Shown here: in pieces, positions 23,993 to 29,915 of the stretch
Layout: every line of letters begins with the position of its first letter
How positions within the stretch are numbered: position 1 is the stretch's first letter
Source of the DNA: a virus
Taxonomy: Duplodnaviria; Caudoviricetes
DNA: 35,579 nt
Virus record (IMG/VR): IMGVR_UViG_3300043932_000058
Coordinates: 1-35,579 of that record
Strand: one strand, 5' to 3'
Notes under the pieces: model-generated
Databases searched by the model: none
Told to the model about the DNA's origin: nothing
What the model saw: only the letters and a program-made list of their open reading frames with translations
Translations under genes and position numbers: made by a program

Positions 23993-25036
23993 ATGGGGTC
24001 GCATACTCTCACCTCGTGGGTGGATGTCCTCGACACTAGCGATAATTTCATGTACACACTCCCCGTCACCGCCGATGGAGTACGGATTGTCACTGGTGGG
24101 GATATCACGAAATCGACGGGGCAGACGGTGCGCGGGCAGGGTTCGATCGATTTGCGTGGCGAAATCGACCTGCTAAACGTCAGGTTTCGGCCGTGGCGCG
24201 AGGTTGATGGGGTTGCGTGGCCTCTCGGGATTTTCGTCCCAGAAACCCCGGACATTGACTGGTCAGGTCTCGGCGCGGCCCGGAGTGTGGGCCTGCTCGA
24301 CAAGCTCACGCTCCTGGATCGGGCGAAACGCATGGACGAATACTCACTGCCTGCGGGGACGGTTGTCACGTCGGCGATTCGTGACCTGATCGAGTGGACT
24401 GGCGAGGCCGCTACCGGTATCGAGGTCGGGACGGATGTGCTGCGGACGGCGATCTCATGGGATCGGGGCACGACGGTCCTCGCGATTATCAACGATCTTT
24501 TGGATGCGATCAACTGTTTTTCCCTGCACGTGGATTCCGCGGGGAGGTTTCAGGTTACGCCGTACGTTGCTCCTGCGAGTCGGCCTATCGTCGTCGAGTT
24601 TATCCATGGTGAGAACGCGCAGTTTATGGACGAGTGGACAGAGACGCGTGACCTTGCGAGTGTCCCGAACCACTTCGCGTGCTATACGGCTGGGGATGAT
24701 GAGACGCCAGGCCTGATGGCAGAAGCCTACAACGACGACCCGGACGATCCGCTTTCCACCGTGAATCGTGGGGTGGTGTCTGCCGATCCGGAGCAGATCG
24801 AGGCGACAGATCAAGCGGTACTGGATGCGTATGCGGCGCGGCGTCTGATCGAGGTGGGCGCGGTGACTCGCACGGTGGAGATCGAGCATGTGCCCATGAA
24901 TCTACAGCTCAACGACGCGGTGCACTTCGTCCATCCGCCGTCGGGGATTGATGGGCGGTTTGTGGTGACAAAAACGGTGGAGCCGATCGACGAGGTGGCT
25001 TTGCAGAAAACGACGCTGCGGGAGGTGGTGGGCTGA
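23993..25036 (+). CDS. minor tail / baseplate hub-like protein
   Basis: WPLGIF, LLDKLTLLD, IINDLLDAIN, VPN...AYNDDPDDPLSTVNRG; tail module position. Confidence 0.75.
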   Translation: MGSHTLTSWVDVLDTSDNFMYTLPVTADGVRIVTGGDITKSTGQTVRGQGSIDLRGEIDLLNVRFRPWREVDGVAWPLGIFVPETPDIDWSGLGAARSVGLLDKLTLLDRAKRMDEYSLPAGTVVTSAIRDLIEWTGEAATGIEVGTDVLRTAISWDRGTTVLAIINDLLDAINCFSLHVDSAGRFQVTPYVAPASRPIVVEFIHGENAQFMDEWTETRDLASVPNHFACYTAGDDETPGLMAEAYNDDPDDPLSTVNRGVVSADPEQIEATDQAVLDAYAARRLIEVGAVTRTVEIEHVPMNLQLNDAVHFVHPPSGIDGRFVVTKTVEPIDEVALQKTTLREVVG

Positions 25037-25536
25037 TGGCTTTCACGGACACAGTTTTGGAGTCGGCGCGGAAAATCGCGTTGGATGTGGTGCGGAAATA
25101 CTCCCCCACGTTCCAGTGGGCTGCGGTGACCTCGACTGATCCGCTACAAGTCAGGTATGACGGGCGGTCTGATCCTCTAGCGGTCTCGCCATCCACGCTG
25201 GTGGGTGGGCTCATGGTAGGGGATCGTGTCTATGTAGTCACCTATATGCGGCGTGCGGTCATCGTCGGGAAAGCGGGAGGCGTATCTCCAGCAATCTATC
25301 GAGTAGACGGCACGGAAATCACCGTGACTGGAGGCGGGAGCAACTACGTCGCGCAAACAATTTCTTTCAAAGATCGTGGATCGGTACCGGCCATATATCC
25401 CGGCTACTGCGCCGGTCCAAATTTTAAAGGTTACATATCGGTGCAGCAGATAGCCGCATCGTCGTGCGTGATCCGCGTATGGAATGCTGGGACTGCCGAC
25501 TGGACTGGGACGCCTACCATACTGCTCGTCTACTAG
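25036..25536 (+). CDS. minor tail protein (OB-fold-like N-terminus, divergent C-terminus)
   Basis: AAVTSTDPLQVRYDG...LMVGDRVYV N-terminal pattern; last gene of the tail module. Confidence 0.7.
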   Translation: MAFTDTVLESARKIALDVVRKYSPTFQWAAVTSTDPLQVRYDGRSDPLAVSPSTLVGGLMVGDRVYVVTYMRRAVIVGKAGGVSPAIYRVDGTEITVTGGGSNYVAQTISFKDRGSVPAIYPGYCAGPNFKGYISVQQIAASSCVIRVWNAGTADWTGTPTILLVY

Positions 25537-26764: not shown

Positions 26765-27034
26765 ATGGGCGGCATTGATACTGGTATCATCGTCGCGGCT
26801 ATCGCGGCAGTAGGAGGAGTCGTGGTGGCCTGGATAAAATGGCGCACCGACCACGAGGCAAACTCGATCGCCGTACTGAAGGTCCTGGTAGAAGAGCAAG
26901 GCGAACAGATCGACCGGCTGCAAGAACGCGTCGATCGACTCGAATCAGAACTACGTGGAGAGAAAGACTACACGGCGTCGCTTCGGGATCACATTTACAA
27001 GAGGCTTCCACCGCCGCCGCCCCCACATCCATAA
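26765..27034 (+). CDS. single-TM coiled-coil lysis-cassette membrane protein
   Basis: N-terminal TM, heptad coiled coil and poly-Pro C-terminus. Confidence 0.7.
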   Translation: MGGIDTGIIVAAIAAVGGVVVAWIKWRTDHEANSIAVLKVLVEEQGEQIDRLQERVDRLESELRGEKDYTASLRDHIYKRLPPPPPPHP

Positions 27035-27076
27035 AAACTTTCCCCGGTCGCCCTGATGGGTGGCCGGGGAGTTTTT
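27033..27076. terminator. bidirectional intrinsic terminator between the lysis cassette and the leftward accessory operon
   Basis: AAAAACT-T-TCCCCGGTCGCCC-TGAT-GGGTGGCCGGGGA-GTTTTT. Confidence 0.85.
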
Positions 27077-27163
27077 CTATCCCCGTCTGCACGGGGAACA
27101 TTCCTGCTGCACCGATATTTGGTTAACGTAATATCGGCTCATCCCCGTCTGCACGGGGAACAT
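27073..27163 (-). CRISPR. cas-less type I-E-like CRISPR mini-array (2 repeats, one 33-nt spacer)
   Basis: Minus strand reads ATGTTCCCCGTGCAGACGGGGATGAGCCG (27163-27135), spacer ATATTACGTTAACCAAATATCGGTGCAGCAGGA (27134-27102), then ATGTTCCCCGTGCAGACGGGGATagaaaa (27101-27073). The 29-nt repeat has a 7-bp stem and an ATGAGCCG handle, matching the I-E pattern GTGTTCCCCGC..GCGGGGATnAnCCG. Confidence 0.88.
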
Positions 27164-27176
27164 TGACTCGATGGTA

Positions 27177-27800
27177 TCACTCCTCCCTGGCTTGCGCACG
27201 GGTCTTCATTTGATAGATCGCGGAACGGTCAATCTTGTAGCGGCGGGCGAGCGTGGTGGCGGATTCGCCATCCGCGAGCGCCTGGAGGATCATACGGTCG
27301 CGTTTTTCGACGAGGGTAGCGGCGAGTCTGCGGGCGGCTTCTAGCGCTGCCTGGGTGGGGTCGAGGTTGGTGTGCCAGTCGTCGAGGGCGGCGAGCTCTT
27401 TCCGGTAGGAGGCTTGCATGATTTCGGCGGAGTTGGACCCTGGGTCTGTGCCCCTGTATTGGGTGGGGAGTCGGTGGCCGTGGTCGGTGCGGGCTTCCCA
27501 TGCGGGGGTGATCTGCCAGGCGCCGAGGTGGTAGGTGGCGCGGTGTGGGTGGCCTGAGGGGATGATCCTTTTCGGGTTCCGCTCGTCGGGCACTCCGGCA
27601 GTGACGAGGAGGATTGAGGGTTCTTCTTTCTTGTCGTCGGGGTCTCCTGGTTTTTTGTCTCCGTCGTGGAGGATGTCCCATACGATGATCCAGCCGTCTG
27701 TCTGCTGGGTGGTGCCGTCGGTGAGGTGGTAGAGGTTTTTGACGGGGTAGGCGGTGCCGGGCTGGTAGTCGAGGAGGCCGGCGGTGACGGTGTGCTCCAT
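27177..27800 (-). CDS. unknown N-terminal domain fused to a C-terminal HTH (Aca-like regulator candidate)
   Basis: AGAAAGGAA RBS before ATG 27800; C-terminal RDRMILQALADGESATTLARRYKIDRSAIYQMK is an HTH pattern. Confidence 0.75.
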   Translation of the reverse strand: MEHTVTAGLLDYQPGTAYPVKNLYHLTDGTTQQTDGWIIVWDILHDGDKKPGDPDDKKEEPSILLVTAGVPDERNPKRIIPSGHPHRATYHLGAWQITPAWEARTDHGHRLPTQYRGTDPGSNSAEIMQASYRKELAALDDWHTNLDPTQAALEAARRLAATLVEKRDRMILQALADGESATTLARRYKIDRSAIYQMKTRAQAREE

Positions 27801-27828
27801 GAGCGGGGTTCCTTTCTGGTGGTGTTGG

Positions 27829-28170
27829 TTAGGCTGCGAAATCGAAGCCGGTGACAACGTCGAGGTCGAGGCCGAGGATTTCGGCGGCCTGCTCGTCGTC
27901 CATGACGTCTCCGCCCATCGCGTTGGCGAAGCCGTCGCCGTCTGCGGTGCGGCCCCAAGAGGGTACGTGGTAGAGGCCCTGGGTCTCGTCTGCGTACTCG
28001 TAGAGGGCGCGGGCGATGCCTTCGCCTTGGTGGTCGGCGTCGACTTCGACGTTGAGGATGAGGCCGGAGGTGTGGGCTAGGAGGTATCCGACTTCTTCGC
28101 CGTCGATGATTGCGGCGTAGCGGGTGCTGTCGAGTCCGTCTGTGGTTTGGGTGGTGGTTGTGATTTCCAT
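27829..28170 (-). CDS. minimal GNAT-family acetyltransferase
   Basis: ILNVEVDADHQGEGIARALY is the GNAT motif A acetyl-CoA loop; AGAGGAAAAG RBS; 113 aa and very acidic. Confidence 0.8.
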   Translation of the reverse strand: MEITTTTQTTDGLDSTRYAAIIDGEEVGYLLAHTSGLILNVEVDADHQGEGIARALYEYADETQGLYHVPSWGRTADGDGFANAMGGDVMDDEQAAEILGLDLDVVTGFDFAA

Positions 28171-28195
28171 TTTCTTTTCCTCTCTGCCTTACACT

Positions 28196-28228
28196 GTCTA
28201 GTGTACTCGACACTAGACGAACATGCAA
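28196..28228 (-). promoter_or_regulatory. leftward sigma-A promoter overlapped by a palindromic operator
   Basis: Minus strand TTGCAT (28228-28223), N17, TACACT (28205-28200); perfect inverted repeat GTCTAGTGT-N5-ACACTAGAC at 28196-28218. Confidence 0.8.
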
Positions 28229-28311: not shown

Positions 28312-28569
28312 TGCTAAAGACTTGCTAAAAAATCACCGCCGGATCCACGCGGCCACAGCGCCTCAATTCATAACGTGACCTGCGCAAACTCCTTGGTGCC
28401 CCGAACAGGATTCGAACCTGCGGCCTTCTGCTCCGGAGGCAGACGCTCTACAATTTCCGCGGTAGACTGGCCTCGGCAAACAGCCTGCTCACGTGGCAAA
28501 ACAGCCTAAACCCTTGTGCACAGCGGCGGCTATGCCTAGGCTACTAGTTGCTAAAAGAGTTGCTAAAAG
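28312..28569. repeat. putative integrase arm-type sites flanking the attP core
   Basis: TGCTAAA pairs at 28312 and 28323 on the left; TTGCTAAAAG at 28548 and 28560 on the right. Confidence 0.7.
28394..28450 (-). other. attP core: 3' portion of tRNA-Arg(CCG)
   Basis: Minus strand TAGAGCGTCTGCCTCCGGAGCAGAAGGCCGCAGGTTCGAATCCTGTTCGGGGCACCA has the anticodon arm (CCG), T-arm GGTTCGAATCC and CCA end. The 5' acceptor/D-arm half is missing, and the integrase is adjacent. Confidence 0.9.
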
Positions 28570-29867: not shown

Positions 29868-29915
29868 AAGGCCCAGACTCTCCGATTATCTGGAGAGTCT
29901 GGGCCTTTATTTCTT
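29868..29915. terminator. terminator between the convergent integrase and repressor genes
   Basis: 16-bp perfect stem AAGGCCCAGACTCTCC-N8-GGAGAGTCTGGGCCTT followed by TATTTCTT. Confidence 0.85.

Follow-up and report, generated by a model that had tools for sequence, protein, structure and literature searches.

A modular phage operon with a GNAT-fold protein, an X-HTH protein and a type I-E-like mini-array as a candidate counter to host CRISPR

The acrIF24-Cracr loci place a phage mini-array with a seed-limited guide beside an HTH-fused gene, and the available part of that source reports type I-E examples of Cracrs and Actinomycetota targets (10.1101/2024.10.29.618823). The Racrs, repeat mimics located beside acr-like genes, are solitary repeat units, and type I-E Racrs exist according to the excerpt available (PMC10651486). 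The inter-virus mini-arrays carry one spacer, host-like repeats and no cas genes, again as given in a partial text (PMC11656645). Small phage enzymes have also been described as anti-CRISPR proteins (Acr): the acetyltransferases AcrVA5-8 act on Cas12a (V-A) and the ADP-ribosyltransferase (ART) AcrIF11 acts on Cas8f (I-F), and no enzymatic I-E inhibitor is given in the available sections of these sources (PMC13131331, PMC13728456).

The window analysed here is the whole 35,579-nt stretch of record IMGVR_UViG_3300043932_000058 (Caudoviricetes), a temperate siphovirus-like record in which terminase, portal, capsid, amidase, integrase and WhiB were found. The cassette is read from the minus strand and has the lysis genes on one side and attP on the other. 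Its promoter-like element (28200..28228, minus strand) consists of a -35 box TTGCAT (28228-28223) and a -10 box TACACT (28205-28200) separated by 17 nt. The -10 box is overlapped by a predicted operator (28196..28218), a perfect inverted repeat with 9-bp arms and a 5-nt loop, just as the first-pass annotation had described. The loci L001 and L041 show the same promoter arrangement and conserve the operator arms, and TACACT is found again 5' of many GNAT relatives. A generic sigma-70 scan left the cassette promoter uncalled. When the 70 nt upstream are shuffled with dinucleotides preserved, a repeat of the operator type arises in 7 of 1000 trials, and the whole window holds only three distinct 9-bp inverted-repeat sites of this kind. 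A 9-bp inverted repeat at 29875-29900, in the interval of the integrase and repressor-like genes, is a probable terminator or operator.

Downstream of the promoter, gene 1 (27829..28170, minus strand) encodes P0001, an acidic 113-residue GNAT-fold protein assigned by a Pfam Acetyltransf_1 match at the cut-off, by its model and by its relatives. Gene 2 (27177..27800, minus strand) encodes P0002, a 207-residue X-HTH protein composed of a beta-rich X domain (about residues 10-145), a helix and an HTH domain. A small acidic gene, followed by an HTH gene and with an inverted repeat on the promoter, is the arrangement of acr-aca operons, and no PDB sequence match or NCBIfam match connects P0001 or P0002 to validated Acr or Aca proteins. 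The array follows on the minus strand, with a type I-E-like repeat 1 (27135..27163; 7-bp hairpin and 8-nt handle) that starts 13 nt past the last stop codon, an AT-rich 33-nt spacer (27102..27134) that folds back on the handle and seed, and a repeat 2 (27079..27101) truncated just after its hairpin. Repeat 2 is abutted by the hairpin (27040-27071) of an intrinsic terminator-like element (27033..27076) at the boundary between the cassette and the lysis genes; the scan called the plus strand only, and since a T-run after the stem is also present on the minus strand the terminator is probably bidirectional. The sequence, the shuffles and the open reading frames thus place every element where the first-pass annotation had put it, array and terminator included. 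Its remark that no cas gene is recognised in the genome agrees with the absence of any cas family among the 47 window proteins scanned in Pfam, a scan that leaves some small ORFs outside. A D12-class adenine methyltransferase gene at 260-1291 is likely a further counter-defence gene of the phage.

The two repeats share 24 identical nt with a period of 62, and even a 16-nt direct repeat occurs in 0 of 300 shuffles. Repeat 1 is identical to repeats of the host family at 26 of 29 positions, and two differences in the stem form one compensated pair. As in type I-E mini-arrays, the repeat is host-like and carries a Cas6e hairpin and an 8-nt handle, and similar arrays are linked to Cse1. In type I-E systems Cas6e cuts at the repeat hairpins. 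Cleavage at both hairpins of the cassette would yield one 62-nt RNA.

The X-HTH protein belongs to a rare family. A profile run against 1.84 billion representatives retrieved 25 matches, of which about nine span X, a domain marked by the motif Y-x-x-x-DP-x-SNS and found alone or fused to two kinds of HTH. For four X relatives the longest contig is as long as that of four GNAT relatives, a circumstantial hint that the two genes are linked. X was not found in the INPHARED phages, in four host-genus genomes or in 201 family genomes, where one HTH-only match was obtained; the genome and metagenome scans took the GNAT alignment as query. The structure searches used the full-length X-HTH model, with X not separated from the HTH, and gave no BFVD match at E<=0.001; the PDB rows are mostly HTH, and X has no clear fold match among them. 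Faint structural resemblances (7bye_B, Z 5.2, rmsd 4.2, 95 residues; CptN 4rmo_A, Z 5.0; PemK in the Atlas, TM 0.46/0.51) would suit an RNase of the MazF/ToxN kind that the repeat RNA keeps in check, as in type III toxin-antitoxin systems, with the CRISPR resemblance secondary. This explanation is very improbable: the fold scores do not rise above background, X is also found by itself or together with a different HTH, and the repeats correspond to host I-E repeats, also in their 61-62 period. In the RNA runs X19 and X21 short contigs of the X-HTH gene occur with small shares, uninformative on strand or level, and no RNA contig covers the array. An 84-residue protein, P0130, combines the start of P0125, which the first gene in the sister phage encodes, with the HTH tail of X-HTH and is apparently a deletion variant that keeps the repressor only.

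The cassette is conserved and modular. A I-E mini-array ends all four distinct X-HTH loci with DNA (the window, L001, L063 and L067), which represent only two lineages. L067, whose X-HTH protein is 33% identical, keeps the order GNAT, X-HTH and array. Only about 3.9 kb of the sister phage G003 (L001) can be aligned with the window, yet the two share the promoter, the operator arms, the X-HTH protein (94%) and an identical spacer, whereas the first gene differs. This gene (L001:4572-4976) encodes P0125, an acidic member of a 134-residue family with no Pfam or PHROG match. Its look-alikes in the Atlas include Arr-type ADP-ribosyltransferases (score 0.95; 16 of 30 matches), which is a lead only. 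Acetyl transfer and ADP-ribosyl transfer are both given as known Acr chemistries in the available text of PMC13131331. With a GNAT in the window and an ART look-alike in L001, the first-gene slot appears to hold small acidic proteins of two modification chemistries. Arr-type look-alikes related to P0125 are seen in this slot in L001, L072 and L020, and in L072 the P0125 relative lies directly upstream of a GNAT relative.

In the sludge runs, contigs with the array have a greater depth than the phage and are joined to other upstream DNA, so that several elements probably share the array. Contigs of runs X1 and X4 (window 27040-27182) also suggest a single-repeat variant, an array joined to another upstream gene, and an abundant element with the shared terminator and without the cassette.

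The first gene of the window itself encodes a protein with a pI of 4.05 and a GNAT-fold model of pLDDT 94, whose best structural matches are generic GNATs (Z 9.2, rmsd 3.9, 97 residues). The acetyl-CoA motif (Q/R-x-x-G-x-A) reads QGEGIA in P0001, and G51 and A53 are invariant in 61 sequences. Among 156 candidates, 153 are relatives of P0001, and the two named ones come from Actinomyces and Schaalia. A parallel with AcrVA5 had been drawn in the first-pass annotation; P0001 shows no special closeness to that protein, which is missing from its best 50 structural matches and was not matched in the sequence search either.

For the GNAT neighbourhoods, 75 loci were fetched, of which 58 are distinct, 49 with at least 1.2 kb downstream and nine short. 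A same-strand HTH gene lies within 1.5 kb in 29 of the 49, a count that misses other HTH types because the profile was built from X-HTH tails, and none has such a gene on the opposite strand. A I-E hairpin lies downstream in only two of the 49, L067 (array) and L062 (a single hairpin at the contig end); L063, one of the nine short loci, also bears an array. Consequently the GNAT may target another defence, and it is the X-HTH protein with which the array travels. The expected synteny of GNAT, HTH and repeat was thus recovered in L067 and L063, while the proposed pairing of the GNAT with the array was not borne out, the GNAT being swapped out in L001 and seldom followed by a repeat hairpin.

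These observations bear on the idea of a general slot for anti-defence or host takeover, in which the GNAT has a non-CRISPR target and only X-HTH and the array concern CRISPR. The GNAT family is widely distributed among elements of actinobacteria, most of which have no array, its fold is that of generic GNATs and it is replaceable. On the other hand, GNAT relatives have Cas8e neighbours in L011 and L015 and an Aca2/YdiL-like neighbour in L061, and the distant L067 keeps the complete gene order, so that a general slot is judged quite unlikely. The Cse1/Cas8e genes that adjoin GNAT-HTH operons in these two viral contigs (L011:4735-6108 and L015:1608-3479) are themselves candidate dominant-negative Cascade decoys.

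The attP core (28393..28450, minus strand) corresponds to the 3' part of a tRNA-Arg and was used to identify the likely host genus. It matches the tRNA-Arg of G395 at 58 of 58 positions and those of G317 and G371, of the same genus, at 55 of 55. The host family is likely Actinomycetaceae, as inferred from the named GNAT relatives. Arrays with similar repeats occur in 19 of 251 genomes of the family. The G317 locus has the order cas3-cse1-cse2-cas7-cas5-cas6e-cas1-cas2, with cas3 split into two ORFs, and cse1 is unmatched in G395. An orphan I-E array in G395 (G395:C8:90877-93628) is interrupted and flanked by insertion-sequence-like genes. One of the 667 host spacers, from G395, matches the sister phage G003 at 30 of 32 positions with the PAM AAT. 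Upstream of cas3, G317 also carries a mini-array (L116, G317:C9:456235-456330) that matches its own cas3 promoter (target near 456454-456468) with the PAM AAT; over the 15 nt of this match, positions 6 and 12 alone are mismatched. Such a 15-nt match with few mismatches is the pattern described for CreR in the part of the source available (10.1101/2023.03.03.530964). The host-genus handle reads ATGATCC and that of the phage ATGAGCC; the phage repeat agrees with that of G395 at 24 of 29 positions, and its exact form is missing from 301 genomes. The attP core was expected to lead to a host with the same repeat: it gives a genus with type I-E, and a locus with an identical repeat was not found.

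The comparison of spacers indicates which part of the guide is maintained. Between L063 and the window, repeat 1 is the same and the first 11 of 11 spacer nt are identical, whereas the remaining 22 nt agree at 4 of 22. Repeat 2 of L063 differs with its stem intact, the terminator is a different one and the 33-nt register is kept. As in Cracrs, the seed is conserved and the non-seed varies, in one variant pair whose spacers are non-independent and in which L063 could be a recombinant. Seed-only conservation is noted for viral regulatory mini-arrays in the available text of 10.1101/2023.03.03.530964. In both spacers the distal part forms pairs with the seed, and the register differs between them. 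The three phage spacers fold at z -2.2 to -2.5 (p 0.02-0.03 each against shuffles), and a z of -2 is reached by 4.4% of 250 host spacers. All three are 33 nt long, and 625 of the 667 host spacers have 32 nt. The length, the self-folding and the sharing of the seed only favour a non-cutting guide, Cracr- or Racr-like. A prophage (L081:3430-3565) also has a Cracr-like array: its HTH-like gene is followed by I-E repeats, three in number and degenerate, with a single very short spacer and a terminator.

The targets looked for include one in the phage itself. Spacer positions 17-31 match 15 nt exactly (25435..25449, plus strand) in the tail-end gene of the window (25036-25536), with the seed side unmatched. 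The match is in frame (ISVQQ in both), its expected number is 0.0007, and none of 100 shuffles reaches it. It is an argument for an inter-phage weapon, in which host Cascade-Cas3 cuts the tail-gene allele of a rival phage and the proteins either shield the carrier or are unrelated passengers. The complete repeat-spacer-hairpin unit, the many related phages that co-occur in the same sludge runs and the established role of viral mini-arrays, as presented in the excerpt of PMC11656645, point in the same direction. However, no protospacer was found: the scans of viral contigs gave only the sister-phage array and one unrelated 18-nt match, and INPHARED gave only 17-20-nt chance matches. The predicted peptide is present in 0 of 4 tail homologues. 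Neither the L063 nor the L067 spacer is matched significantly in the window phage or the sister phage, which leaves L063 unexplained, and a cutting spacer is not expected to show seed-only conservation or fold-back. The weapon is a somewhat unlikely explanation.

Neither did a regulatory target emerge. No PAM-plus-seed match lies at a cas promoter: among 338 family genomes, each standing for one species, 33 contain a total of 55 matches, and the 30 loci inspected have no cas neighbour. The G317 cas locus contains no such match, and no host mini-array with the phage seed was recognized among 10 inspected of 14 matches. Several candidates were set aside. An AAG-plus-seed site in the 23S rRNA, to which many of the 55 matches belong, is one conserved site counted repeatedly and unmatched in the four host-genus genomes, and was attributed to chance. 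A 9-nt seed match with an AA PAM inside the cse1 of L108 is at about chance level, the 18-nt spacer match in L078 has an unrelated context, and the L063 spacer matches the tail-tube gene of G003 or the tail gene of the window no better than shuffles.

The best explanation, given about an even chance, is a modular operon that counters the host type I-E system with a protein-modifying enzyme and a non-cutting guide RNA and that is predicted to be self-repressed by its HTH protein. After entry, the promoter would produce one transcript. The GNAT, or the ART-like protein in the sister phage, would modify a protein of the host's defences, for which a Cascade subunit is the most likely candidate. 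The host Cas6e would cut both hairpins and free the single RNA, which may load Cascade without licensing Cas3 and act by titration (Racr-like) or through a short promoter match (Cracr-like). Loading without Cas3 is suggested by the conservation of only the 11-nt seed and by the distal part that folds back onto it. The X domain may resemble in its action the inhibitor half of AcrIF24. Subsequently, the X-HTH protein would bind the inverted repeat and shut off the operon, like Aca proteins. The match of spacer positions 17-31 to the tail gene is unexplained by this mechanism; it would be compatible with a non-cutting guide if the spacer came from a tail gene and was put to new use as a decoy. 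The first-pass annotation had already proposed that the cassette is an anti-CRISPR that combines enzyme and RNA. The synteny, the acr-aca-like architecture and a I-E host genus that targets the phage group speak for that proposal, whereas the tie between GNAT and array was not supported and an identical host repeat was not found. In an extended and unlikely version, the interchangeable acetyl- and ADP-ribosyltransferases would be the first enzymatic type I-E anti-CRISPRs, and X would spare Cascade that carries the 33-nt fold-back guide from inhibition, making it a repressor programmed by the phage at a time when host-guided Cascade is out of action.

The locus offers three new candidate families of type I-E anti-CRISPR for Actinobacteria (GNAT, ART-like and X), and the guides of the window and L063 form a natural variant pair in which the seed stands isolated. 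Should the enzymes prove to modify Cascade, they would serve as enzymatic off-switches for the type I-E tools with which actinomycetes are engineered; a guide that proved to repress a promoter would extend Cracr biology to a new protein partner.

Compared with the described systems, the cassette resembles AcrVA5-8 and AcrIF11 in its small phage GNAT and ART-like proteins, the published enzymes acting on other CRISPR types (PMC13131331, PMC13728456, in the sections available). With the inter-virus mini-arrays (PMC11656645, as excerpted) it shares the single spacer, the lack of cas genes and the host-like repeats; unlike them, it has an acr-aca-like operon setting, and neither an exactly matching host repeat nor a full protospacer was found. 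It shares with the Racrs (PMC10651486, in part) a repeat mimic beside acr-like genes, and is not classed as one because its two hairpins and spacer are not solitary, although run X4 hints at a single-repeat variant. With the acrIF24-Cracr loci (10.1101/2024.10.29.618823) it shares the mini-array beside an HTH-fused gene and the seed-limited guide, and its host genus has a CreR-like array. Unlike Cracrs, it has a full-length spacer (33 nt) that is not shortened; no matching host CreR or cas-promoter target was found, and for want of a target it is not classed among them. Its partner proteins are unrelated to AcrIF24, and the available text of that preprint mentions neither GNAT nor HTH. The combination had been flagged as possibly new, and it is undescribed in the literature searched; the supplementary candidate table of the Cracr preprint, which includes Actinomycetota, could list the element. 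The architecture of the cassette parallels that of the acrIF24-Cracr loci, and its proteins are new.
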